From Bacillota bacterium (lineage in GTDB: Bacteria; Bacillota; Clostridia; Oscillospirales; Acutalibacteraceae): a DNA stretch of 64,000 nucleotides. How positions within the stretch are numbered: the first letter of the stretch is position 1; each line of letters begins with the position of its first letter. The position numbers and the translations under genes are program-made. Shown one piece after another: positions 1 through 47,566 of this stretch. The notes below the pieces were generated by a model. That model searched no databases and was not told the origin of the DNA. It saw only the letters and a list, made by a program, of their open reading frames with translations. The stretch spans positions 2,916 to 66,915 of the forward strand of contig JAEWWM010000050.1 in the NCBI GenBank assembly GCA_023458915.1, read 5' to 3'.

Positions 1-2
1 AT

Positions 3-641
3 CTCGTACTTTTGAACTCCGATTTTGCAGCTATGCCAAAAGCCGTTGCAGAAGGAAGAAAAGCAATAAATAACATTCAAAGGTCATCTTCGCTTTTTTT
101 AGTAAAAACAATTTACTCTTTCCTACTTTCCATATTGTTTTTCTTTATTCCCGCACCTTACCCATTCATACCAATTCAAATGACGCTTATCAGCGCTATA
201 GCTATTGGAATCCCGTCATTTATTCTTGCGCTGGAGCCTAACAGAGAAAAAATTCGCGGAAATTTATTTAACAACATAATTAGTAAAGCCTTGCCGTCAG
301 CTCTGGCAACCGTGTTTTCATTGTTACTGTGTGTCGGAATTTATTCGTTTTTTAACATCTCACAGGAAAGGTATTCAACTCTTACCGTTGTTACAACAGG
401 GGTTATGGGTATATTTTTGCTTTATAATATATCGCTTCCATTTAATAAACTTCGAAAAGCACTTTTGTGGGGTATTAGTATTGTTTTTCTTGTAGGTATC
501 ATAACTTTTACGAAATTACTTGAATTAGAACCGCTTAACTGGATTAACGTTTTGATACTTATGCCAATAATTATCGTTTCAAAAATTGTTTATAATTATG
601 TATCAAAAATAAAGATGGATAAGTTGCTTAAAGAGGTTTAG
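3..641 (+). CDS. P-type cation-transporting ATPase, C-terminal membrane portion (5' end outside window)
   Basis: Frame open from the window edge. LLNSDFAAMPKAVAEGRKAINNIQRSSSLFLVKT hinge-type motif followed by several hydrophobic helices, as at the end of E1-E2 ATPases. Confidence 0.7.
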   Translation, partial: LVLLNSDFAAMPKAVAEGRKAINNIQRSSSLFLVKTIYSFLLSILFFFIPAPYPFIPIQMTLISAIAIGIPSFILALEPNREKIRGNLFNNIISKALPSALATVFSLLLCVGIYSFFNISQERYSTLTVVTTGVMGIFLLYNISLPFNKLRKALLWGISIVFLVGIITFTKLLELEPLNWINVLILMPIIIVSKIVYNYVSKIKMDKLLKEV

Positions 642-734
642 CCTAAACGGTAAAAAATGGATATTGACTTGAAAACATACAATTGTTATCATTATGAACA
701 GTGAATTTATTTGAATTTGAGGGGGTAATCACCT

Positions 735-896
735 TTGAAAACAGAAAATAGATGTGCTTTAACAATTGTAATTGGAATTATTACATCTCTTGTAACAGTT
801 TTGTCTTTGGCAATTATTGTATTTGTGTTTTTCGACAGAAAAAGAAAAAAAGAAGAGATAGAACTCGAAGAATATTTGGAAAGTACCATAAGTTAG
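735..896 (+). CDS. small single-pass membrane protein (53 aa), absent from supplied ORF track
   Basis: GAGGGGG SD at 719-725 and TTG start at 735. Translation: LKTENRCALTIVIGIITSLVTVLSLAIIVFVFFDRKRKKEEIELEEYLESTIS. Followed by a strong hairpin terminator. More plausible than the antisense ORF 707..889. Confidence 0.5.
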   Translation: MKTENRCALTIVIGIITSLVTVLSLAIIVFVFFDRKRKKEEIELEEYLESTIS

Positions 897-930
897 CTTA
901 TTTTTTGAAATATAATAATATTAAAATATA

Positions 931-971
931 ATCTCAGAGAAAACGATTTTCTCTGAGATCTGATTTGTTTT
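931..971 (+). terminator. rho-independent terminator
   Basis: 13-bp perfect stem (atctcagagaaaa / ttttctctgagat) with a 3-nt loop, then a T-rich run. Confidence 0.75.
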
Positions 972-1145
972 AACAATATAATTTTTTGATTATACAAGAT
1001 CGCAAATTATATGATTTTTATTTTGATTCATCTTGGCTTAATATTTCGATCTGACCCCTTGTAAATAAAATCGATTAAGTTGGGCGTGAAGTTTATCTTG
1101 GTGTTGGCCTTTCGATGGCAACTCCTGGACTATGTGAGCTAATTA

Positions 1146-27483: not shown

Positions 27484-27560
27484 CCGGGTGTGGCGCAGTT
27501 TGGTAGCGCGCTTGAATGGGGTTCAAGAGGCCGCAGGTTCGACTCCTGTCACTCGGACCA
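27484..27560 (+). tRNA. tRNA-Pro (anticodon GGG), CCA encoded
   Basis: Acceptor ccgggtg/cactcgg, D stem gcgc/gcgc, anticodon stem cttga/tcaag with loop auGGGgu, T loop ttcgact. Confidence 0.85.
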
Positions 27561-35964: not shown

Positions 35965-36609
35965 TTAAAAAGTTTCGTCGTTTCCTTTATTATTTAATTT
36001 TTTTCTACATGCTTTACATCTTGCTTTGCCGTCTTCTGATTTCTTTTCTGCCATATGATAGGCTTGTTCGGCTGTATAAGTCTTGCCGCTATGAGTAAAT
36101 CCTTTAAACTCAGCTCCACAATCAGTGCAGTAATATTTTTGATCTTGTATCTGTTCGACTTTTTGCTCAGATTTTTGTTCTGGCAAATCCTCACCGGCGT
36201 AGATGTAAAGTCCTAAACCAAACATTGCTAGATTTTTAACTAGACATCTCATGATTGTCTTATTTATGTCAAACATAGTCGCGGCTTCAACTTTAATGCC
36301 TTTTTTATACTTAGTATCGTAAGTGTAAGGCTCACTTTTCATAGCTTTGTTTGCGCTGTTCATGACGGGAAGCCACATTGTGTGCGTTATACCTTCAATG
36401 GTTACATCCGTAAAAACCATATAGCCAGTATTTTTGTCGTAAACATAGGGAAGCTGCTCCTCGCCAAACAATCTTATTTTGTATTCTGCCGATGGGTATA
36501 TTTTTTTAACTTCTGCCCAAGCATAGGTCCAAGATAAATAAGTGAGACCATCTTTTTTTTCGGTGTAGTTATTAACATTGATTTTAAATAGCTTTTCAAA
36601 AATGTTCAT
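35965..36609 (-). CDS. phage Rad52/Sak-type (DUF1071-like) single-strand annealing protein with C-terminal zinc ribbon
   Basis: LTYLSWTYAWAEVKKIYP, MRCLVKNLAMFGLGLYIYAGEDLP, and a C-terminal CTDC...CKAC ribbon. Confidence 0.7.
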   Translation of the reverse strand: MNIFEKLFKINVNNYTEKKDGLTYLSWTYAWAEVKKIYPSAEYKIRLFGEEQLPYVYDKNTGYMVFTDVTIEGITHTMWLPVMNSANKAMKSEPYTYDTKYKKGIKVEAATMFDINKTIMRCLVKNLAMFGLGLYIYAGEDLPEQKSEQKVEQIQDQKYYCTDCGAEFKGFTHSGKTYTAEQAYHMAEKKSEDGKARCKACRKKLNNKGNDETF

Positions 36610-36827
36610 TGATTTTCCTCCTTACATACAAATGGAATTTTTAGTGCCTAGATGCATTGAGTTTTTTTATTTGCGGCCTTTTGCACTTAAAAACAATAGT
36701 AAGATTCATCTGTGAAAAACAGTATGCTTTCGCTGAAAATAGGTTCACCGCATCTTGGGCAATTATGCATAGCTTTGCTTTTCACTTTATTTAATTTTTA
36801 GCCGTTCTGTTTTTAATAGATATAGTA

Positions 36828-36846
36828 TAGTTGTAAATTACAACTA
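36828..36846. promoter_or_regulatory. 19-bp palindrome (9+1+9), candidate operator upstream of the SdpI-like gene
   Basis: TAGTTGTAA-A-TTACAACTA lies ~50 nt upstream of ATG 36896, next to TATAAT at 36871-36876. Confidence 0.4.
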
Positions 36847-36895
36847 ATAGAATTAAAGATAAAATAGTAGTATAATTAAAGACGGGGGGATTAAA

Positions 36896-37561
36896 ATGAT
36901 TAGTAAAATTTTATTTCCGATTACACTGATAAACTCACTGATAATGGCATGGTTTATAGGGAAAATTGAATATGATATTGTTGCACTTCACTACAATATA
37001 CATGGGAATGCTGATTTTTACGGCAGTAAATGGATGCTGTTGATTTTTGCCGCTATTCCCTTGATCTTATCCTCGATTTTTTGGTTTTACAAAAGTTTTA
37101 CTAAAAACTCAAATAACAAAAAACATAACGATTCAGCTGAAAATAAAATAATATCTGTAATAATAATTTTCTTTATGCTGATTAGCTGGATGATTATTGT
37201 TATAGCTTCAAGCAATACGCAAAGGTTAGGCACTCCGGTGTTGTCCGGTATAGCGGGACTGTTGGGGTTATTAATAATCTCTATAAGTATTTTTATGCCG
37301 CAAATTAAACCAAACAAATTTTTAGGGATCAGAACATCTGCTACTTTAAGAGATGACAGTGTATGGGATAAGACACATAAATTTGGGTTTTACACTGGAA
37401 TTATCGGCGGAATTTTGACTATACTTTTCGCACTGGTTTCTTTAATAACAAATGTGCAATGGCTATGTTTTGCGGGTATTTTCTGTAGTATTGCGGGAGC
37501 AATTATACCTGCAATTTATTCTTATATAATTTATAAAAAACTCAATCATCCACACAATTAA
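36896..37561 (+). CDS. SdpI/YhfL-family membrane protein (DUF1648 + SdpI-like)
   Basis: Six TM helices with HYNIHGNADFYGSKW at the N-terminus and KPNKFLGIRTSATLRDDSVWDKTHKF in the middle. Confidence 0.6.
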   Translation: MISKILFPITLINSLIMAWFIGKIEYDIVALHYNIHGNADFYGSKWMLLIFAAIPLILSSIFWFYKSFTKNSNNKKHNDSAENKIISVIIIFFMLISWMIIVIASSNTQRLGTPVLSGIAGLLGLLIISISIFMPQIKPNKFLGIRTSATLRDDSVWDKTHKFGFYTGIIGGILTILFALVSLITNVQWLCFAGIFCSIAGAIIPAIYSYIIYKKLNHPHN

Positions 37562-37618
37562 AAACGCTTCCAATACTACTGTATATTTTTGAATAGTTTG
37601 AAAAATTTTCAATATATA

Positions 37619-37699
37619 TTATGCATATTTTGCAAATTCATCATCAATTATTTTTTCTATATTTTCATCTAATTTTTTTATGTATTCAATTTTCAGCAT
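37619..37699 (-). pseudogene. 26-codon stub resembling the N-terminus of a GNAT acetyltransferase
   Basis: MLKIEYIKKLDENIEKIIDDEFAKYA then stop. Overlaps the ANT(6) stop codon by 14 nt. Confidence 0.3.
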
Positions 37700-38555
37700 T
37701 AGATTTGCTCCTTAATATTTTCAAATATTTTGTTACACCGTTATCTTCACTTTGGTTGTAGGTGAAACTTAATTTTAAGGCAATCTCTTTAGCTAAAATT
37801 CTGAATAATTCACACGCTTTAAAAACAGCATTCCATAAATTTTCATAGTTGCTGTCTGAGTATGTTTTTTCATACATTTTGTAAAAATTTTCCGGCAAAA
37901 AATCTTTAAAGTATCTTCCAAATGTGCCTGTGGAAACTTTGAAATCGCTATGAAGCCCGATGTACCACTTAACCATTTTTTCAAGTTCCACATGGACGAT
38001 ATCAAACATTCGCATGGCATAAGTGAGTTCATCACGAACGATGCCTTTAGCAACATTTTGAAGGCACCACCAAAATTCATTTTGGCAAGCTTTAAATTTA
38101 TTTTTCGTAGGAGGATTTATCAGAAAATCGCTATCGCTGGATACTATATTCGAGAATTTATTATCTTTATCAAGCAGCACAACTGTTGCGCTATCAAGAT
38201 TTATTGTGTTTAGAAAGTCCATGGTTTCAAATGTCATATCCATCCTGAGTCCACTATTAAACAGCGTAAGGTACGCAAAATGCTGCTCAGGATTATGTGC
38301 ATTATCAAAAAGCTTAGGGTTATCGGGAGTTTGCAAAATGGCAACTTCGCCAAATTTCGCAGCAAATGCATCAAACCAATATTTGTCCAAATATGGCTTA
38401 TTTGAATGCGTAACAAATGCAATATCATAATCGCTCAATTTATCAATTTTTCCGTTTGGATTTGCCCGTGACCCTTCAAGCAACACTGCTCGTATATTTT
38501 CATCTGATTTTGCAAAATTTAAAACGATATTTAATATTTCATTCTTTTTATGCAT
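37686..38555 (-). CDS. aminoglycoside 6-nucleotidyltransferase, ANT(6)/AadK-like
   Basis: ILNIVLNFAKSDENIRAVLLEGSRANPN...DYDIAFVT matches the ANT(6) N-terminal nucleotidyltransferase pattern; length is typical at 289 aa. Confidence 0.75.
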   Translation of the reverse strand: MHKKNEILNIVLNFAKSDENIRAVLLEGSRANPNGKIDKLSDYDIAFVTHSNKPYLDKYWFDAFAAKFGEVAILQTPDNPKLFDNAHNPEQHFAYLTLFNSGLRMDMTFETMDFLNTINLDSATVVLLDKDNKFSNIVSSDSDFLINPPTKNKFKACQNEFWWCLQNVAKGIVRDELTYAMRMFDIVHVELEKMVKWYIGLHSDFKVSTGTFGRYFKDFLPENFYKMYEKTYSDSNYENLWNAVFKACELFRILAKEIALKLSFTYNQSEDNGVTKYLKILRSKSNAEN

Positions 38556-38787
38556 AAGAAGCGTCCACCTCTTTCTGCTGCTTAAAAATACATTTTACTA
38601 TTTATCCATTCGTTAAAAAGGGGAACAAGTGCATTACGGTGGTTATAATAGCAACTTCTTTTAACTATGCTATTATACCACACAATTTCTTTTTCGCTAA
38701 TTTAAGTTAGTGCATATGTTTGGCAAATTTTTATTTTTTAATTTGGAAAAAAGTCTAATAAAAAAATTTTTCAATTAAAATTGGGTG

Positions 38788-39228
38788 CTAAGCAAAATTA
38801 TTAGTATTAGATTGATTAGTAGGGCAAGTGTTATTAGAAATTCCGTTTTGAATTCTATTTAACCCTGCCTCACAGTCGCGAATTCCACTTTCAACATCTT
38901 CAATACCATCATTTATATTATTCCTGCATATTTCACAGCGTCCGCAATTGATATTTCTAAGGGCTTGTGTGCATTGTCTTAATCCGGCACAAATATTACG
39001 ATTTTGCATGCCTGAATTTTGCACTGCTGACCTGATACATGCTAGCCCTTGTGCACATACACAGTTACCGTTTGAGATTTCTGTTGTTCCTCTGCAGATG
39101 TTGTTATTGCGGACTTCATTTAATCCTTGAGTACACTGGCAAAGACCTTGAAGACAAATATTTATACCACGAGTAACCCTTCGATTAAAATTTAAAATAT
39201 TGTTCCCATTACATCTAGAATTACACAT
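38788..39228 (-). CDS. Cys/Asn-rich repeat protein (146 aa, 16 Cys), no family recognised
   Basis: Recurrent NIC-x-GL-x-QCTQ-(G/A)L units (ICLQGLCQCTQGL; VCAQGLACI; ICAGLRQCTQAL; CGRCEIC). AAAGGAG SD. No signal peptide. Confidence 0.65.
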   Translation of the reverse strand: MCNSRCNGNNILNFNRRVTRGINICLQGLCQCTQGLNEVRNNNICRGTTEISNGNCVCAQGLACIRSAVQNSGMQNRNICAGLRQCTQALRNINCGRCEICRNNINDGIEDVESGIRDCEAGLNRIQNGISNNTCPTNQSNTNNFA

Positions 39229-39269
39229 ATAAGCATCGACTCCTTTTTGAGCGAAGAAAAATTCTGTAA
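39199..39269 (-). repeat. inverted-repeat arm A: 5' leader, SD and first 10 codons of the Cys-rich gene
   Basis: About 85% identical (hand alignment: 61 matches, 8 mismatches, 3 gap positions) to 40106..40175 on the opposite strand. Confidence 0.8.
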
Positions 39270-39389
39270 GATTTCAATGTATTATATTCTTTTGCAGCTA
39301 TATATGTGATAAATTCAGCTTGTTTTATTAAAATATTCTAAATTAGTGCGAGTGGTCGGTAAGGGCACTAGGTAAAAATTATGGTGCTG

Positions 39390-40028
39390 TTATTTTTTAT
39401 AATCATCTATCTCCCATGTACCAGACAGCGTTGCAGTCGACGGAGGCACTGAAAGAGCTGGTGAATAAGGCGACGATGAAGACGACAATGGAGAATATGA
39501 TGAAGGTGGAAAGTGTGATGAATTTATTTTTAAAATTAATTGATTTAAAGCATTTTTCTGATTGTATAAAGTCGTAATTAATTTTATAAGGTAATGTTTA
39601 AGGTAATCTTCGCTGTAGCCTTTAATTACAGTATATGCTTCGCAATCAGGTTTAAAAGCTTCAGCAAATCTTTTGTTCCAGTAACCACCATATTTATGCC
39701 AATGACTTTGCGCGGTGACCCAGGCAGCTTTACCGGTGGCTTCCTTAACGATTTCCCAGCTGTAAGTAAGATTGGCACAGCAATAGGCGTCGCCGGCGTC
39801 GTATGCGGCGTTCATAGCGGTGTCATGAATGTCAAAATATTCTTTAAATAAACTAGGCAACAGCTTAATTAGCTTTTCGTTTTTAGCTTGTGTTGTCTTC
39901 TTTTCAAGTGTTGCAGAAACATTTATAAGTGTTGCAGAAACATTTGTAAACGAAGCACCTGACATTCCAATTAGCGCTGACACTACGCATAATAATACCT
40001 TTTTATTCAAAATGCTAAATCTTTTCAT
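39390..40028 (-). CDS. secreted protein carrying a third, diverged copy of the Trp/Ala-rich module plus a Ser/Pro-rich tail
   Basis: Signal peptide containing an 18-bp tandem duplication (NVSATLINVSATL). Motifs LIKLLPS, AAYDAGDAY, AAWVTAQSHW, EAYTVIKGY and YLIKLITTLYNQKNALNQLI follow the module order of 34328..35608. Confidence 0.65.
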   Translation of the reverse strand: MKRFSILNKKVLLCVVSALIGMSGASFTNVSATLINVSATLEKKTTQAKNEKLIKLLPSLFKEYFDIHDTAMNAAYDAGDAYCCANLTYSWEIVKEATGKAAWVTAQSHWHKYGGYWNKRFAEAFKPDCEAYTVIKGYSEDYLKHYLIKLITTLYNQKNALNQLILKINSSHFPPSSYSPLSSSSSPYSPALSVPPSTATLSGTWEIDDYKK

Positions 40029-40105
40029 AATTTTTTTATACTCCCATTAATTAAATGTTTTATTATATGCTTATTTAATATATCATAATAATATATTTTT
40101 AACAA

Positions 40106-40175
40106 TTATAGAATTTTTTCGCACAAAAAGGGGTCAATTCTTATTATGTGTAATTCTAAATGTAATGGAAACAAT
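40106..40175 (+). repeat. inverted-repeat arm B: 5' leader, SD and first 10 codons of the beta-lactamase-like gene
   Basis: Partner of 39199..39269. Both genes begin MCNS(R/K)CNGNN. Confidence 0.8.
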
Positions 40176-40961
40176 TTTATTCTACAAATTTTAATTTCAT
40201 TAATTTTAACTGTTTATATTTTTGCTTTAACGGGTTGTAAGACTTCATCTTCAAATGAAACAGAAGTAGATCTGTCAAGCTTTTTTAGCGAAAAAGAAGG
40301 TTGCGCTGTATTTTGTAAAGATAATCATTTTTATGTATACAAAAAAGATATGATTAACGTTCAGGAATCTCCATGTTCTACTTTTAAAATCTTTCTAACC
40401 TTGGCTGGCCTGAAGTTTGGCGTACTAAAAGACGAAAACACCATGATTAAGTGGGATGGCATAAAAAGAGATTTTGAATTTTGGAATAAAGATTTAACAT
40501 TAAAGGAAGCATTCAGTTTATCTGCTGGGTGGTGGTTTAGAAAAGTTGCAAATGATATAGGTAAAGAAAAATTATCTTATCTTGTAAATGAACTTTCTTA
40601 TGGTAATTGTGACACATCCGGAGAAATACCTTTTTGGGTAGATTCCTCGATCAAAATTTCGCCAAAAGAACAAGTTGAATTTATTAAAAAGATTTTTAAT
40701 TATGAACTGCATTCATTTTCCAGGGAGCATGTAGAAATATTAAAAACTGCTATGCAAAAAGGGATTATAAATGGCGGTAAGTTATATGGAAAAACCGGAA
40801 GCAGCAGCACCAACAAAAACGGTTGGTTTGTTGGTGCTTACGAAAAAGGCGGCAAATATCTGTTTTGTGCAGTTAGATTATTTAGTGGGCAAGAAATTTC
40901 TGGCTCTACCGCTGAAAAAATATTAAGAAATATTATTGAAATTAAATATTCACAAATATAA
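40146..40961 (+). CDS. class D (OXA-type) beta-lactamase-like lipoprotein
   Basis: STFK, SAG (at the SxV position), YGN, KTG and WFVG motifs in OXA order. WDG...W.KDLTL and QVEFIKK parallel OXA-10. Lipobox ALTGC. Confidence 0.8.
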   Translation: MCNSKCNGNNFILQILISLILTVYIFALTGCKTSSSNETEVDLSSFFSEKEGCAVFCKDNHFYVYKKDMINVQESPCSTFKIFLTLAGLKFGVLKDENTMIKWDGIKRDFEFWNKDLTLKEAFSLSAGWWFRKVANDIGKEKLSYLVNELSYGNCDTSGEIPFWVDSSIKISPKEQVEFIKKIFNYELHSFSREHVEILKTAMQKGIINGGKLYGKTGSSSTNKNGWFVGAYEKGGKYLFCAVRLFSGQEISGSTAEKILRNIIEIKYSQI

Positions 40962-41222
40962 TAATATTGCTAAATATGCTTAAATTTTGGAATTTAATCC
41001 CTATGTTTCCGCTATGGCTCCTAGTAGCTATATTTTCTGAGCTGTTCAAAAAATATACATTTTCCTCACAAACAAAGTTTAAATTAGGATATTTAACAAT
41101 AATTAGGCAAACTTATTGCTTTTTTTTAACATACAGGTATCATTATGTAATTAAACTCAGTTTTTCAGAGTATAAAAGTATAGTAGTTTGTTCATCAAAC
41201 TTTATCAAAGGGGTGTAATGTT

Positions 41223-41978
41223 TTGGAGAAAGTTAGCAAAAAACCGGTTTTTGGCGAATATATGAGAGGACTTAAAGATGGTGTGCCAATAGGAATGGGA
41301 TATTTCCCCCTTTCAATGGCTTGTGGCATAGCTGCTTGCAAAGTAGGACTTAATTTTGGAGTAGCGCAGATAATGAATTTGCTTTTATACACTGCGTCTG
41401 GTGAGGCTGCTGTATTTAACCTTTTAAGAGGTGGAGAAACAGCAATTTTAATGTACGTTCTTACGATATTTGTTATGAATTTTCGGTATGTAATTTTTTC
41501 AATGTCAATTGCTCAAAGATTTGACAAAAGCATGAGTATACTTGAAAGAGTGCTTTTCGGACTTTTGAACACTGACGAAATATTTGGTGTCGCTATGAAA
41601 GAAAAAGGAGATTTAAAAGCCCCTTATCTTTTTGGCCTTGCAACCGTGCCTTATATTGGATTTGCTAGTGGATTTTTAGTGGGTTCGTTGTTCACTGAAT
41701 TACTTCCAGCTTCAGTTAGCGCAGCTCTTGGAATTATGATTTTCGCAATGTTTATAGCAATAGTTGTTCCTTCTGCAAAGGAATCAAGGCCGGTTTTAAT
41801 AGTAGTATTGATGGCTTTAGTAGTGAGCATTATTTTGGAATGTATTCCTGCTGTCAAAGCACATCTTAGTGCAGGCTGGATTATTATTATCTGCGCAGTT
41901 GTAACTGCAGCTATAGGTGCAATTTTATTCCCAGTTGAAGACTCTGCCAAGGAATTGGAGGCCGAAATAAATGAGTAG
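41223..41978 (+). CDS. azlC: AzlC-family branched-chain amino acid exporter subunit
   Basis: GLKDGVPIGMGYFPLSMACG start and a polytopic profile. TTG start. Overlaps azlD by 8 nt. Confidence 0.78.
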   Translation: MEKVSKKPVFGEYMRGLKDGVPIGMGYFPLSMACGIAACKVGLNFGVAQIMNLLLYTASGEAAVFNLLRGGETAILMYVLTIFVMNFRYVIFSMSIAQRFDKSMSILERVLFGLLNTDEIFGVAMKEKGDLKAPYLFGLATVPYIGFASGFLVGSLFTELLPASVSAALGIMIFAMFIAIVVPSAKESRPVLIVVLMALVVSIILECIPAVKAHLSAGWIIIICAVVTAAIGAILFPVEDSAKELEAEINE

Positions 41979-42294
41979 TCAAAATTTTATATATGCTGTG
42001 TTGGCCATGGCCGTAGTAATGGTTTCCTTCAAGATCGTGCCAATATTATTTTTTAAAGATAAAATAAAAAATAAGTTTTTACAGTCGTTTTTAGCTTACA
42101 TACCGTATGCAGTGCTAACTTCCATGACATTCCCAGAAGTATTTCTACAAAAAGATTTAGGTATAATTTCAGCTTCTGTGGGTGTTGTTGCGGCTTTAGT
42201 GCTGGCGTATTTTGGTCAAAGTTTAGTTGTTGTGGCGCTTTCCTCCGCGGCAGTAGTTTTCGTTGTTGAACAAATAATGAATTTCATTAAGTGA
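41971..42294 (+). CDS. azlD: AzlD-family small membrane subunit
   Basis: 107 aa, 3-4 TM helices, translationally coupled to azlC. Confidence 0.7.
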   Translation: MSSQNFIYAVLAMAVVMVSFKIVPILFFKDKIKNKFLQSFLAYIPYAVLTSMTFPEVFLQKDLGIISASVGVVAALVLAYFGQSLVVVALSSAAVVFVVEQIMNFIK

Positions 42295-42323
42295 TGTAGA
42301 AGCAAAAATAAATCAATTTAAAC

Positions 42324-42353
42324 TTAACCACCGGCGGTAGTACCGGTGGTTAA
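42324..42353 (+). terminator. stem-loop after azlD
   Basis: 11-bp perfect stem ttaaccaccgg/ccggtggttaa with an 8-nt loop. The U-tract is weak. Confidence 0.55.
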
Positions 42354-42357
42354 ATTA

Positions 42358-42387
42358 TTGGACACAACAAATAAAATATGGTAAAAT
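42358..42387 (+). promoter_or_regulatory. promoter for rnpB
   Basis: TTGGAC, 18-nt spacer ending TGg, TAAAAT. The RNA 5' end follows about 10 nt downstream. Confidence 0.55.
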
Positions 42388-42396
42388 TTAAGTCAT

Positions 42397-42794
42397 GAGT
42401 AGACTAAGTAATCGCGTACTGCGCCTCATGGCAAAGTATGAGGAAAGTCCGAGCTCCATAGAGCAGGTTAACGGCTAACAGCCGCCGAGGGCAACCTCAG
42501 GGAAAGTGCAACAGAAATATACCGCCCGAAATTTATTTTTAGTGATTTTTTTCTCTTTCTATAAGAAGAAAATCCAGAATAATTACTTTTTCGGGTAAGG
42601 ATGGAAAGGCGAGGTAAGAGCTCACCAGCGCGTAGGAGACTACGCGGCTATGCAAACCCTAACCGGAGCAACACCGTTTGGTATGAAATATGCGCCTGCT
42701 CGGCGCTTCTTTAAGGTGGCAATGAGCCAGCAGCGGCAACGCTTGGCCAAGATAGATGATTACTCACGACAGAATTCGGCTTATCGGTCTACTC
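42397..42794 (+). ncRNA. rnpB: RNase P RNA
   Basis: P1 pairing gagtagac/gtctactc. Universally conserved GAGGAAAGTCCG (P4 5' strand) and ACAGAAttCGGCTTA (P4 3' strand). ~398 nt with an AT-rich peripheral hairpin (cccgaaa...tttcggg). Confidence 0.88.
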
Positions 42795-42885
42795 TTTTAT
42801 TATAGAAAACATTTATTTAATTGATCAGTTTTGTAAGTATATTAAAGAAAGTACCATAAAATGGTATAAATTTAGGTGTAAATTT

Positions 42886-43737
42886 ATGATAAAAAGACTA
42901 GTAAATGTATTTTTAAGCTTTATTATGATGCTTTTTGGCTGTGGTCCTGCGGGTAAAATTCAGCGCGTAGAAATTTCGAATGGTTTGGTTAACACTTTTG
43001 TTATTGGAAATGGCAGCAAAACTATTGTAATGCTTAGTGGCTGCGCCACCGAAAATCCTATAGAAGATTTTATGCCTCTTGCTCGAAAATTAAGCAAAAA
43101 TTTCAAAGTGGTTGTAATAGAATATTTTGGCTATGGAGCAAGCGATATAGTGTTTAACGAAAGATCAAGTGAAAACATTGTTGGTGAAATAAGAGAGACA
43201 TTAGCTAAGCTCAAAATAAAACCACCGTACATTCTTATGCCGCATTCAATTTCAGGAATTTATTCACGTAAGTATGCAAAGGAATATCCGAATGAGGTTG
43301 AAGCAATTATTGGAATAGACACTTCAAAGCCAAATGCTCAAAAAGAATTTTATGAATCAAACGAAAGATTAATAAAATATTTTTCCGAAGATTTTTTCCC
43401 AAAAATTTCAGATAAAGGTAAAATCACAGTGCCGATTTTTAATGAAGCTAATATGTTTTACAAAAATAGTGAAGAATTTTTTGATGTTAAATATCCTGAA
43501 AATTTACCGGTCTTATCTTTCATTTCCAGCGAATCAATTAAGTCAACGAAACTCGAAAAAAGTTTGATAAACTTAAACAAAATAACGGATTGAGATAAAT
43601 TTGAACAAAATATGATTTCTAATCCTGAAATTCAAAAAATAGAAATTTTAGAAGGTTCGCACTACTTGCATCACGAGCAAGCAGATAAAATCAAAGAGTT
43701 GACAACTGAATTTATAAATAATATTAAAAATAGATAG
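42886..43737 (+). pseudogene. alpha/beta hydrolase interrupted by an in-frame TGA (43591-43593)
   Basis: N-terminal signal/lipobox-like FGCG and nucleophile-elbow-like PHSISG. After the TGA the same frame continues for 47 codons through EGSHYLHHEQ, the position of the catalytic His. Confidence 0.65.
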
Positions 43738-43773
43738 TGAAATAATAAACTGTTTTTTGAGTTTTAGTAATAC

Positions 43774-43802
43774 TTGACATATTATTTTAATTTTTATAAA
43801 AT
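43774..43802 (+). promoter_or_regulatory. near-consensus promoter for the double-glycine peptide gene
   Basis: TTGACA, 17-nt spacer, TAAAAT. Confidence 0.6.
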
Positions 43803-43845
43803 TATTGCACAAAATAATTATAAAATACAAAAGGAGGAACAAAAC

Positions 43846-44079
43846 ATGGAAATTAATGAAAAAAGTCTTAATGAGGTAGCAGGCGGAAAAATTGTAGAAA
43901 CTAAAGGTGGAAAATTTTTAGCAGTACCACACTGGGTAAAAGAATATGCAACAGAAGAAGAGGCAAAAAAAGAACATTGTGGTAAAGGCCATGGTCATCA
44001 TCATAAAGGAGACGGTAAATGTAGCCCGGGCTGCGATATGAAACCTGCAGTTGAAACACCCCCAATTCCGAAAGTTTAA
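43846..44079 (+). CDS. double-glycine-leader peptide precursor (77 aa) with charged, His/Cys-rich core
   Basis: AAGGAGG SD. Leader MEINEKSLNEVAGG has hydrophobic residues at -4, -7 and -12 relative to GG. Core contains HCGKGHGHHHKGDGKCSPGCD. Confidence 0.65.
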   Translation: MEINEKSLNEVAGGKIVETKGGKFLAVPHWVKEYATEEEAKKEHCGKGHGHHHKGDGKCSPGCDMKPAVETPPIPKV

Positions 44080-44098
44080 AAGTGCAGACACTTAAAAT

Positions 44099-44134
44099 AA
44101 AAACTACTGAGTTTTTTATACTCAGTAGTTTTTT
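44099..44134. terminator. bidirectional terminator between the peptide gene and def
   Basis: 11-bp perfect stem aaactactgag/ctcagtagttt, flanked by A- and T-runs. Confidence 0.8.
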
Positions 44135-44168
44135 CATATAATTCTTAACATCTTATTAGTTATGAATT

Positions 44169-44606
44169 TTAAGCTATGCGAGATTTAAGAAGTATTCCGT
44201 CTAAATGGTCATTTTCATGGTGAAAAGCTCTGGCTTTTAATTTTTTGCCAGAATATTGTATCGCTTCACCTTTTCTATTTTGCCCTTTAATTGTCACAAA
44301 CATAGGTCTTGTGACTTTATAAAATTGTCCTGGAAGAGATAAGCAACCTTCCTCATCCTTTTGTTCGCCGCTTGTTTCTACTATTACAGGGTTAACAAGT
44401 TCTATATCTCCGTCGCCTACATTAACAACAAAAATACGCTTTGAAACGCCAATTTGCGGTGCCGCAAGCCCAACCCCTTGGTTTGATTTCATTGTTTCGA
44501 ACATATCATCAATTAATATGCTGAGACTTTCATCAAAAATTTCAACCTCCCGGCATTTTTTGTAAAGTATAGACTCGCCTTCTTTTACTATGCTTCTAAC
44601 TGCCAT
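44169..44606 (-). CDS. def: peptide deformylase
   Basis: GVGLAAPQIG, EGCLSLPG, HENDHLDG. Confidence 0.93.
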   Translation of the reverse strand: MAVRSIVKEGESILYKKCREVEIFDESLSILIDDMFETMKSNQGVGLAAPQIGVSKRIFVVNVGDGDIELVNPVIVETSGEQKDEEGCLSLPGQFYKVTRPMFVTIKGQNRKGEAIQYSGKKLKARAFHHENDHLDGILLKSRIA

Positions 44607-44657
44607 CGCATTTCACCTCTCTTTAACTTCTAAAAGTAAATAACCTAATAATATTTT

Positions 44658-45077
44658 TTAATCGTCAAATTCTGTAAAATCGTCTTCTTCGCTTTCTTTT
44701 ACAGTGTTAGTACAGCAATTGGATAGTTTTGCACCACATTTTGTACAATAAGAAGAGCCTTCCTCGTTTTGATTACCGCAAGATTCACATAATACTTTAT
44801 TTTTCATGGAAGCAATTTGCTTTTTTAACCCCTCCATTTGAATATAATAATTATCTATCTGAGCTATCGAGGCGTTAATTTCTGCCTTATTTTCCGTGCT
44901 ATTTTTTTCGCCGTTATAAACAGTTTTTCCTAAATTTTCAAATTCCGATTTAAGATCTGCCTTGAGTTCCGCAAGTTTTATGTTCAATTTTGAAACATCC
45001 ACAACCTGGCCGGCTTTTTCGCCAAGCGCGTCAACCGCTGCTTTAACTTTAACAAAAAGATCTTCGAACACTCCCAT
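44658..45077 (-). CDS. coiled-coil protein with C-terminal zinc ribbon
   Basis: CESCGN...CTKCGAKL. Start set at ATG 45077, 7 nt after GGAGGA. Confidence 0.6.
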   Translation of the reverse strand: MGVFEDLFVKVKAAVDALGEKAGQVVDVSKLNIKLAELKADLKSEFENLGKTVYNGEKNSTENKAEINASIAQIDNYYIQMEGLKKQIASMKNKVLCESCGNQNEEGSSYCTKCGAKLSNCCTNTVKESEEDDFTEFDD

Positions 45078-45358
45078 TACATCATCCTCCAAATTCTATT
45101 TTTCATATATTATAACTAAAAAATATTAAAATTACAAATGTTTGTATAAATTCACTTTTGAACCTTATTCCCAAATCAAATGCTGTATAATTCTATTTTA
45201 TGACTAAAAAATAATTTTTGCCATAATTTTGGCTTCATTTTTCGAGCAGTTACTTTGTAATGTTTTGGTATCTTTTTCTTCCGACGTACAGGGGGAGGAA
45301 AAGATAAAATAATTATTTAAACAATATTCTTCAATATTTTTTGTCTTTTCAGCTAATT

Positions 45359-47566
45359 TTACATTCTTTTTACAGATAGTACCCCGCTGACTTTTGCGAG
45401 ATTATCCATAACGTAGTGCAGATGTTCAAGGTTTTTGGTGCTGATTGTAACGAACATGACTACTTTATTAGCCGACAGCATTTTTGAGTTTAAAGATTTA
45501 ACTTTAAGGTTCATAGCAGAAATTTTTCGCGTGATATCTATTAAAATTTCCTCGCGGTCAAGAGCAATTATTTCAATTGTTGCATCAAACACTTCTGAGA
45601 TGCTGCTTGACCACCTGGCGGGTACCCACCTTGTGGGGTCGTTTTGCATTTCACAGGAATCGGGCACGTTTTTGCAAGTGGTTTTGTGAATCGAAATACC
45701 ATATCCTTTTGTTATAAAGCCAATTATATTGTCGCCGGGCAAAGGATTACAGCATTTGGAAAGTTTTACGAAACAGTTTTTCATATCCTGAACGATTATA
45801 CCGCTCGGTTTTTTACTCATACTATCAGGTTGCTCGGATCCATGCATTACAGATTTGCTTTGTGATTGCGGTTTGATTAATTTTTTACCCATTTTAACGT
45901 AATTGCTTTTCAGCTGTGGCATAATTCGCCAAAGCTGAACTCCACCATAGCCTACTGCTGCGAAAAAATCATCCAGAATTGTAAATTGATTTTTTTTGAG
46001 TATTGGCGCTAATAATTTTTCAAGTTCATCTTCATCGTTCACAAAAATTTTGTTCTTTTTAAGTTCGATTTCAGTTTCAGCTTTACCCTCTGCAATATTT
46101 TCTTCTCGCCTTTCGCGCTTAAACCACTGCCGTATTTTGTTTCTGGCTTCGCTGGTTTTTATAATATTTAACCAGTCGCGCGACGGGCCTTTATTCGGAT
46201 CTTTGGTACTGAGAATATCAACTATTTCTCCGGTTTTAAGCACATAATTTATCGGTGCTATTTTCTGGTTCACCTTGGCGCCAATCATTCGGTTGCCAAG
46301 CTCTGTATGGATTGCGTAAGCAAAATCTATGACAGTGGAACCGGTGGGAAGGTTTATTACGCTTCCTTTTGGAGTCAAGACAAAAATCTCTTTTGGCACA
46401 AGATCGGACTTAATGTTACCTAAAACATCGGTGACATCTTCAACATCTTCATGACTTTCAAGGAGTTTTCTTATCCATGATAAAGACTCTGTAAACGAAC
46501 TGTCTTTTCCGGAAATCCCGAGTTTATATTTCCAATGAGCTGCAACTCCGTATTCAGCAGTCCTATGCATTTTCCATGTTCTTATTTGAATTTCAAACGG
46601 AATACCTTCGCGACTTAAAACCGTTGTGTGAAGCGATTGATACATATTTGGTTTCGGTATAGATATGTAGTCTTTAAATCTGCTCGGAATCGGCTGAAAC
46701 ATATCGTGTACAATGCCGAAAATATTGTAGCACTCGTTAATTGTATTTACGATTATGCGAACTGCATATATATCATAAATTTGGTCCATTGTTTTGCCTT
46801 TAATAAACATTTTTTTATAAATCTCGTTCGCGCTTTTAACACGGCCTTCAATGTATACATCCGGCACAAACTTTTGAATCCTGTCCATTATTCTTTTTTT
46901 TATTAAATTTATAAATTTACCACGGTCTTCTTTGCAGAGTGCAAGCGAATTTTCAACTTCAGCGTACGCAATCGGGTCAAGGCATTTAAGCGAAATATCT
47001 TCAAGTTCGTCTTTTATAGTTCTGATACCGAGCCTATGAGCAATTGGCGCAAAAACTTCCATGTTTTGAAGAGATTTGTCCCTGCGTTTTTGAGGGTCCA
47101 TGCATTCAATTGTGCGCATATTTTGAAGTCTGTCAGCAAGTTTTATAATTATAACTCTTATGTCATGCGACATTGCTAAGAGCATTTTGCGAATGTTTTC
47201 AGCTTGCTGCTCTTCTCTTGAAGATGACGGAATTCTTTTAAGTTTTGTTACGCCGTCTACTAGATTGGATATTTCTTCGCCAAATCTTGTTTTGATGTCC
47301 TCATGGCGAATGCTTGTGTCCTCAACTACATCGTGAAGAAGTGCAGCAGCAACTGAAGGCGCGTCCATTCCGAGTTCAACTAATATGTAAGCTACTGATA
47401 CCGGGTGCACAATATAGTCAACGCCTGAAATTCTTTTTTGACCCTGGTGAGCATTAAGCGCAGTTTTGTAGGCTTTATCTATAACTTCAAGGTTATAGTC
47501 TTTTCCGCTTTGATCTATAAGTTCTAAAAGTTCATTATATGTATGATAATTAAGCTCCATTCCCAC
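45359..47566 (-). CDS. rel: bifunctional (p)ppGpp synthetase/hydrolase, RelA/SpoT homologue
   Basis: HD domain (HPVSVA...LLHDVVEDT), synthetase domain (YRSLHT-like YQSLHTTV), then TGS and ACT regions. 735 aa. Confidence 0.95.
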   Translation of the reverse strand: MGMELNYHTYNELLELIDQSGKDYNLEVIDKAYKTALNAHQGQKRISGVDYIVHPVSVAYILVELGMDAPSVAAALLHDVVEDTSIRHEDIKTRFGEEISNLVDGVTKLKRIPSSSREEQQAENIRKMLLAMSHDIRVIIIKLADRLQNMRTIECMDPQKRRDKSLQNMEVFAPIAHRLGIRTIKDELEDISLKCLDPIAYAEVENSLALCKEDRGKFINLIKKRIMDRIQKFVPDVYIEGRVKSANEIYKKMFIKGKTMDQIYDIYAVRIIVNTINECYNIFGIVHDMFQPIPSRFKDYISIPKPNMYQSLHTTVLSREGIPFEIQIRTWKMHRTAEYGVAAHWKYKLGISGKDSSFTESLSWIRKLLESHEDVEDVTDVLGNIKSDLVPKEIFVLTPKGSVINLPTGSTVIDFAYAIHTELGNRMIGAKVNQKIAPINYVLKTGEIVDILSTKDPNKGPSRDWLNIIKTSEARNKIRQWFKRERREENIAEGKAETEIELKKNKIFVNDEDELEKLLAPILKKNQFTILDDFFAAVGYGGVQLWRIMPQLKSNYVKMGKKLIKPQSQSKSVMHGSEQPDSMSKKPSGIIVQDMKNCFVKLSKCCNPLPGDNIIGFITKGYGISIHKTTCKNVPDSCEMQNDPTRWVPARWSSSISEVFDATIEIIALDREEILIDITRKISAMNLKVKSLNSKMLSANKVVMFVTISTKNLEHLHYVMDNLAKVSGVLSVKRM

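Follow-up and report, generated by a model that had tools for sequence, protein, structure and literature searches.

The start of a class D beta-lactamase-like lipoprotein gene in a gut Clostridia bacterium is probably an inverted copy of the 5' end of a nearby Cys-rich gene

The stretch of DNA considered here, referred to as the window, comprises 64,000 nucleotides (nt) of a 68 kb contig (JAEWWM010000050.1, positions 2,916 to 66,915 of the forward strand; C50 in our numbering) belonging to the genome of an uncultured small-genome gut Clostridia bacterium (GCA_023458915.1; 1.14 Mb, 95% complete). Three neighbouring genes of this window are at the centre of the present analysis. The first (38788..39228, minus strand) encodes a Cys/Asn-rich protein of 146 amino acids (aa) which starts with MCNSRCNGNN, lacks a signal peptide and forms part of a small family that has no annotation. 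The second (39390..40028, likewise minus strand and thus co-oriented with the first) encodes a secreted Trp-rich orphan protein of 212 aa. The third (40146..40961, plus strand) encodes a 271-aa lipoprotein resembling class D beta-lactamases and BlaR1 sensors, in which the start MCNSKCNGNN(F) is followed by a hydrophobic region and the lipobox LTGC (with the cysteine at position 31). The 5' ends of the first and the third gene carry one and the same sequence module in inverted orientation. An initial annotation, made from the sequence of the window, had described such a module of about 70 bp on both genes, the related protein starts MCNS(R/K)CNGNN and the location of the open reading frame (ORF) 39390-40028 between the two arms. 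All three observations hold, and the module turns out to be somewhat longer than described.

The copy on the Cys-rich gene, which we address below as the donor, occupies 39184..39269 (minus strand) and consists of about 41 nt of 5' untranslated region (5'UTR; 39229-39269) containing the Shine-Dalgarno sequence (SD) AAAGGAG and of codons 1-15 (39184-39228). The copy on the beta-lactamase-like gene, the derived one, occupies 40106..40195 (plus strand) and comprises the leader, the SD AAAGGGG, the ATG at 40146 and codons 1-10. The solid core of the arms extends over 39196-39269 and 40106-40178, respectively, while the remaining tail of the derived copy (40179-40195) is less certain and contains a 5-nt insertion (40182-40186) which shifts the reading frame relative to the donor. 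A repeat search reports this arrangement as an inverted pair of 34 nt with 91% identity (39196-39229/40145-40178) and an adjoining inverted pair of 31 nt with 84% identity (39229-39259/40114-40144); gapped alignment and blastn lengthen the arms to 86 and 90 nt (39184-39269 versus 40106-40195). Identity amounts to about 87% in the gapped alignment and, with gaps counted, to 81.5% over the 92 columns aligned by blastn (E about 1e-17). Within codons 1-10, 28 of 30 nt are identical, and the alignment of the 41-nt leader shows five mismatches along with two small indels. The longest perfect run measures 14 nt (TATGTGTAATTCTA) and not 13 bp, as had been stated initially. Altogether the arms cover nearly the whole 5'UTR, the SD, the ATG and ten certain codons, perhaps 15 to 16 codons' worth in all.

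This similarity clearly exceeds what is found elsewhere in the window. The local alignment score of the arms is 52, compared to a maximum of 17 for 2084 other 90-nt pieces of the window; a shuffle comparison of larger regions around the arms yields a z of about 21, and a 23-nt degenerate pattern of the module matches the window twice versus 0.00 matches expected. The genome as a whole contains two copies only, both of them in the window, and exact-pattern scans of metagenome, genome and viral collections revealed no further ones. Two candidates for an additional copy within the genome were dismissed: a 24-nt match (92%) on contig C70 lies inside the start of an unrelated gene (MEQKILNVMEK), and a 20-nt match on contig C82, located 2.4 kb from a serine recombinase gene, is at chance level (E=0.3) and lacks matching inverted repeats. 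Likewise, a duplication reaching into the promoter was suggested by a long gapped alignment and had to be rejected, as the upstream part taken alone is at chance level; the similarity of the promoter regions upstream of the arms gives a p of about 0.2-0.3.

The product of the plus-strand gene shows the penicillin-binding transpeptidase fold (Pfam Transpeptidase, 9.3e-28) and its sequence contains STFK, YGN and KTG motifs. It reaches 166.8 bits with the NCBIfam model bla_class_D_main (cut-off 250) and 181 bits with blaR1_generic (cut-off 400); the predicted protein is closest to the class D beta-lactamase and BlaR1-sensor models while falling below the cut-offs of both. As read from the sequence, it possesses a lipoprotein signal made up of K5, the hydrophobic segment FILQILISLILTVYIFA and the residues L-T-G-C31, which conform to the lipobox [LVI][ASTVI][GAS]C. 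The decapeptide encoded by the module constitutes the n-region of this signal peptide, and K5, which corresponds to R5 of the donor, is its sole positively charged residue. Since the sequence offers no alternative start codon between 40146 and the lipobox, synthesis of the protein would depend on the captured SD (AAAGGGG) and ATG.

None of the homologs read (0/15, sharing 46-72% identity with the protein) exhibits an MCNS start; most of them begin in an MKK- or MMKK-type manner and contain a lipobox. An MCNS start is also missing from two homologs encoded in genomes of the same genus, which likewise begin in the conventional MKK-type manner. The closest homolog, P0004 (72% aa identity, locus L017), has an MMKK-type start preceded by an unrelated leader, and the nucleotide homology of L017 to the window sets in only at 40191. 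In the protein alignment with this ortholog, the protein of the window is longer by 11 residues at its N-terminus. The 271-aa frame is open, and the ratio of nonsynonymous to synonymous substitution rates (dN/dS) versus L017 is 0.092. We would like to mention two observations on the surroundings of these homologs. In L017 the gene (290-1060, plus strand) is divergent from a phage portal gene (2-220, minus strand; phrog_12, E 3.4e-8), which suggests that this class-D-like gene lineage travels as prophage cargo. Both congeners (L027, 335-1614; L028, 971-2250) harbour a 57%-identical class-D-like lipoprotein gene with a GTG start (MK[IV]VKKSICLL...) at a different, apparently stable locus, 8 nt downstream of a gene for a 164-aa HAD-type phosphatase.

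For the Cys-rich protein, no family was retrieved from Pfam, NCBIfam or PHROG. A single ortholog, with 75% aa identity, was found among 5.8 billion proteins (locus L016), and nine representatives of more distant family members among 1.84 billion (including P0124-P0131). In L016 the homology to the window is unbroken over 38769-39345, that is, through the gene, the arm and 76 nt beyond. Promoter, leader, SD, spacer and ATGTGTAAT are shared between L016 and the Cys-rich gene, and the leader and start of L016, GAAAGGGGTCGAGCTTAT ATG TGT AAT, match the module. The genes adjoining the L016 ortholog, a CAP-domain gene and an endonuclease-III-like (nth-like) gene, are wholly unlike the neighbours in the window. 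The distant family members possess N-termini such as MCNRGCYCNG, MSCGCMNSGN and MNNCGCSANSC. The family members measure 135-165 aa, one of them 280 aa, and are characterised by Cys/Asn-rich N-termini and repeated units resembling G-[IL]-x-x-C-x-x-G-L. Several Cys positions of the protein are not kept in the 75% ortholog, yet the dN/dS of the Cys-rich gene versus L016 is as low as 0.105. With dN/dS values of 0.09-0.10, both the Cys-rich and the beta-lactamase-like gene are under purifying selection and hence real genes.

Since L016 possesses the module and the homologs of the beta-lactamase-like gene are devoid of it, the module evidently belonged to the Cys-rich gene from the outset and is of foreign origin in the beta-lactamase-like gene. 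As judged from these sequences, copying appears to have run from the former to the latter. The initial assumption that the beta-lactamase-like gene has captured the module is thereby supported, both by L016 and by the starts of the Cys/Asn-rich family as opposed to the homologs lacking an MCNS start. The donor can be narrowed down further, as in codons 4-9 the copy fits the Cys allele of the window (TCTAGATGTAATGGG against TCTAAATGTAATGGA) and not that of L016 (GCAGACGCGGCAGAA). This indicates that the event took place within the genome, after the L016 lineage had branched off (number of synonymous substitutions per site, dS, about 1.4). When L016 is used as an outgroup, roughly eight substitutions can be polarised, and changes are found in both copies: on the donor side, for instance, at 39241 and 39205, and on the side of the copy, for instance, at 40136, 40139 and 40159. 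The copy carries a 1-nt and a 5-nt insertion, and the leader shows a further length difference of 2 nt. With a divergence of about 11% plus three indels, the duplication is old and has not been homogenised since. As the first ten codons of the two Cys-rich orthologs agree in no more than about 70% of positions, the 28/30 identity between the arms reflects their age rather than a special constraint.

At its downstream end, the part of the copy which is with certainty Cys-derived terminates at about 40178. Following the 5-nt insertion, a match of 10 nt (AAATTTTAAT) runs to 40195, and at the junction the Cys-derived homology overlaps with the homology of the native gene by the sequence TTAAT. This overlap would be compatible with microhomology-mediated joining, and we infer that the 5-nt insertion changes the donor frame in such a way that the hydrophobic sequence FILQIL is read. 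The breakpoints are resolved to about 15-20 nt.

On the basis of these data we regard it as likely that the locus represents a fixed evolutionary chimera, in which the start of the beta-lactamase-like gene was replaced by an inverted copy of the 5' module of the Cys-rich gene, and hence a scar rather than a switch. According to this reading, a beta-lactamase-like lipoprotein gene located on the margin of a decayed prophage or accessory island would have lost its own leader and first few codons, which in the closest relative are of the MMKK type. Their place would then have been taken by an inverted copy of part of the Cys-rich gene, which is 0.9 kb distant, namely of its 5'UTR, SD, ATG and initial 10-15 codons. 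An illegitimate event over a short distance might have produced the fusion, be it by template switching or by microhomology-mediated joining, with TTAAT as the shared sequence and the 5-nt insertion setting the frame. Presumably, the module now serves in translation initiation and, including K5, as the n-region of the signal peptide, and transcription of the beta-lactamase-like gene would be driven by a different promoter ahead of 40106, which may be the native one. The sequences at hand provide what a captured module should display, namely 5' homology, recipient orthologs lacking the module, a donor ortholog possessing it and an apparently intact and maintained chimera.

Several points weigh against this interpretation or at least against parts of it. 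The sequence around the junction is AT-rich and of low information content, and the precise position of the junction, the microhomology TTAAT and the indel of 5 nt could be alignment artefacts. With one close ortholog per gene, few sequences are available for reconstructing the ancestral state. A promoter scan yielded no convincing plus-strand site upstream of 40106, and this region is only suggestively similar to the upstream region of L017 (p about 0.006-0.02); the beta-lactamase-like gene may nevertheless have kept its native promoter there. The use of ATG 40146 along with the copied SD we infer from the nucleotide sequence. No pre-fusion state of the locus was found among the 35 species of the same genus and the 25 more distant genomes examined, all of which also lack the Cys-rich and the Trp-rich gene.

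The geometry of the locus, with inverted arms at the 5' ends of two diverging genes and a promoter inside the segment between them, would also fit an active invertible segment. Recombination between the arms, effected by a recombinase acting in trans or by the Sak protein encoded nearby, would flip 39270-40105, exchange the upstream regions of the two divergent genes and thereby position the Cys-gene promoter, along with the Trp-rich gene, ahead of the beta-lactamase-like gene. The initial annotation had predicted such an inversion. Public sequences, however, do not support it: the contigs examined, at least nine distinct ones drawn from 11 or more records (ENA, NCBI GCA_023421155.1 and Logan; different samples), are all collinear with the window at 99.8-100% identity, in assemblies, which hide minor variants. 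None of them breaks inside an arm, although the short contig L033 terminates at a distance of 7 nt from the arm on the Cys side. Divergence of the arms in both copies is at variance with the homogenisation to be expected from ongoing exchange. RecA-type recombination, moreover, needs identity far above 14 nt, and the longest identity between the arms is thus far too short for it. The long near-identical 5' regions typical of the sap system of Campylobacter fetus are not present either, as the arms are about 87% identical over 86-90 nt with a longest run of 14 nt. Finally, inversion would only exchange promoters and, hence, not create an on/off switch. We therefore consider an active invertible segment very unlikely.

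With regard to enzymes which might catalyse such a rearrangement, profile searches of the whole genome with PF00239 and PF00589 detected neither a serine nor a tyrosine recombinase on the 68 kb contig. Accordingly, the flanking inverted repeats of an invertible switch are present, while a recombinase in or next to the element is absent. The other contigs of the genome encode two Hin-sized serine recombinases (open frames of 199 and 206 aa; one such recombinase, when inspected, proved to be an ORF of 194 aa) as well as further serine and tyrosine recombinases. The initial statement that no recombinase is nearby thus stands for site-specific recombinases, but it overlooks an intact Sak-type single-strand annealing protein (35965..36609, minus strand; Pfam SSAP_Sak, 2.5e-50) with a C-terminal treble-clef zinc finger, which is encoded in the decayed prophage region 2.6 kb from the arms and is the only recombination protein of the neighbourhood. 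It could at most have helped in the original event. It is conceivable that a small serine recombinase acting in trans, or Sak at replication forks, occasionally flips 39270-40105 and thereby causes a promoter swap at low frequency, although we deem this highly improbable. If it were true, the promoter of the Cys-rich gene together with read-through from the Trp-rich gene would come to lie before the beta-lactamase-like gene, which a subpopulation would then express strongly.

The presence of nearly the same leader on both genes had initially been taken to imply their co-regulation. The predicted sigma-70-type promoter of the Cys-rich gene (39281..39310, minus strand; ATCACA-18-TATAAT, matching the consensus in 10 of 12 positions) is kept in L016. 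It is located inside the middle segment and outside the duplication. As the copied module begins about 12 nt downstream of the conserved -10 box of the donor, the promoter was not copied. No significant RNA fold is found in the leader of any copy (z from -1.0 to +1.6), and a search of Rfam at E<=1 over positions 30000-46000 of the window yielded nothing except RNase P RNA and a chance match to tmRNA; a riboswitch or attenuator within the leader was rejected on these grounds. What the two genes verifiably share is a translation-initiation region. Co-regulation is therefore not implied at the level of transcription, and a shared post-transcriptional regulator, while possible, is unsupported.

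Such a regulator, be it a small RNA, an RNA-binding protein or a translational repressor, would control both mRNAs in trans, with selection keeping the two leaders and first codons alike, and would link production of the beta-lactamase-like protein to the regulon of the Cys-rich protein; this would add to the capture of the module rather than replace it. In favour of a shared cis-regulatory module of this kind, the translation-initiation regions are about 87-93% identical next to dissimilar upstream sequence, and L016 has retained the SD, the spacer and ATGTGTAAT. The missing fold and Rfam match, the uncopied promoter and the age of the duplication, which accounts for the similarity of the arms when first codons as variable as those of the Cys-rich orthologs are considered, argue to the contrary. 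We thus regard this addition to the chimera as unlikely. Independently of this question, it can be observed that the module starts about at the predicted transcription start of the donor (39269-39290, minus strand), so that the copy would correspond to the 5' end of the mRNA, which may be a coincidence. An RNA-templated origin would fit a module starting near the predicted +1 position; it was rejected, as no RVT_1 domain is encoded in the 95%-complete genome.

The arms could also be conceived as the terminal inverted repeats of a small mobile cassette which carries the Trp-rich gene and was inserted between two existing genes. Indeed, they flank a single orphan gene that has a paralog on contig C17. 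The homology to L016, however, runs through the arm and 76 nt into the promoter, and thus into the interior of the supposed cassette. Furthermore, functional gene starts lie within the arms, additional copies are absent from the genome and from the three public collections, and no transposase is present. This proposal, which we rejected on the comparison with L016, is extremely improbable.

The Trp-rich gene bracketed by the arms matches no family, and a search among 5.8 billion proteins retrieved nothing but the protein itself. Its distant paralog on C17 (L022 895-1683, minus strand) comprises 262 aa, is similar in the signal peptide (44% over 57 aa), contains a poly-Ser linker and adjoins the gene of a 389-aa multi-pass membrane protein. 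In the 5' part of the Trp-rich gene, a 21-nt tandem duplication (39901-39942, 90% identity) gives rise to the sequence NVSATL-I/NVSATL-E following the signal peptide. The surroundings form an accessory stretch without a recombinase which reaches from tRNA-Pro (27484-27560) to AzlC (41223) and encodes a pentapeptide-repeat protein, a GH25/LysM endolysin, the Sak annealing protein, SdpI and ANT(6). With the latter, a streptomycin adenylyltransferase (37686..38555, minus strand; Pfam Adenyl_transf, 1.2e-88), the island carries another gene of the resistance type. Directly downstream of AzlCD, an RNase P RNA (class A, 265 bits; 42396-42799, plus strand) marks the return to the core genome to the right of the island.

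If the beta-lactamase-like gene is such a chimera, the locus offers a natural example of how a horizontally acquired, prophage-borne gene of the resistance type may become expressible in a new host by means of the ribosome-binding leader and first codons of a resident gene, with the borrowed codons taking on a second role as the n-region of a lipoprotein signal peptide. Sequences representing both parental states are known, an ortholog possessing the module for the donor and orthologs lacking it for the recipient. For annotation, this means that the odd N-terminus would be real and not the result of a miscalled start, and that a short inverted duplication at the start of genes does not necessarily act as a switch. 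The case falls under 5'-end capture of a known type and does not reveal a new mechanism.

An aminoglycoside acetyltransferase gene may serve for comparison: AAC(6')-4 has reportedly become fused in vivo to the signal-peptide start of TEM by a direct duplication inside a transposon of Enterobacteriaceae, with the beta-lactamase being the donor and a cytoplasmic enzyme the recipient. There as here, a resistance-type gene gained the 5' end of an unrelated neighbour through local duplication or fusion, resulting in a chimeric N-terminus. Our locus differs in that an orphan gene for a cytoplasmic Cys-rich protein serves as the donor and the beta-lactamase-like gene as the recipient, in that the copied stretch is inverted and measures only about 90 nt without including the promoter, and in that the host is an uncultured bacterium with a small genome. 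Invertible promoters such as those of the sapA genes of C. fetus, the Hin/hix and fimS systems and the invertible promoters of Bacteroides feature long or identical repeats and dedicated or RecA-dependent recombination, and both orientations occur in populations. With sapA-type systems the locus has in common two opposed genes with conserved inverted 5' ends and a promoter-bearing segment between them, but the long or identical repeats, the dedicated or RecA-dependent recombination and, among assembled contigs, the second orientation are not found here.

Another parallel is the gcuF1-blaOXA-28 fusion of a class 1 integron, in which the initiation region of an ORF fused upstream is used for the translation of OXA and the signal peptide is altered; this fusion arises by integron cassette insertion, is reversible by the integrase and lowers resistance (reviewed in PMC8876359). 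In both cases the gene appears to use a foreign initiation region fused to it, with a change of its signal peptide. Our locus, in contrast, lacks an integron, its fusion is fixed, and the hydrophobic region and lipobox of the lipoprotein signal look intact. Class D beta-lactamases also occur in Gram-positive bacteria, among them CDD-1/2 of Clostridioides difficile (PMC6299217), and a lipobox is present in 60% of OXA enzymes (PMC11580949). With CDD-1/2 and lipidated OXA enzymes the protein of the window shares the class-D-like fold, the STFK, YGN and KTG motifs, the lipoprotein signal and a host from the Clostridia, while it differs from them, on present sequence evidence, by scoring under the NCBIfam cut-offs for class D and BlaR1 and by its chimeric N-terminus.

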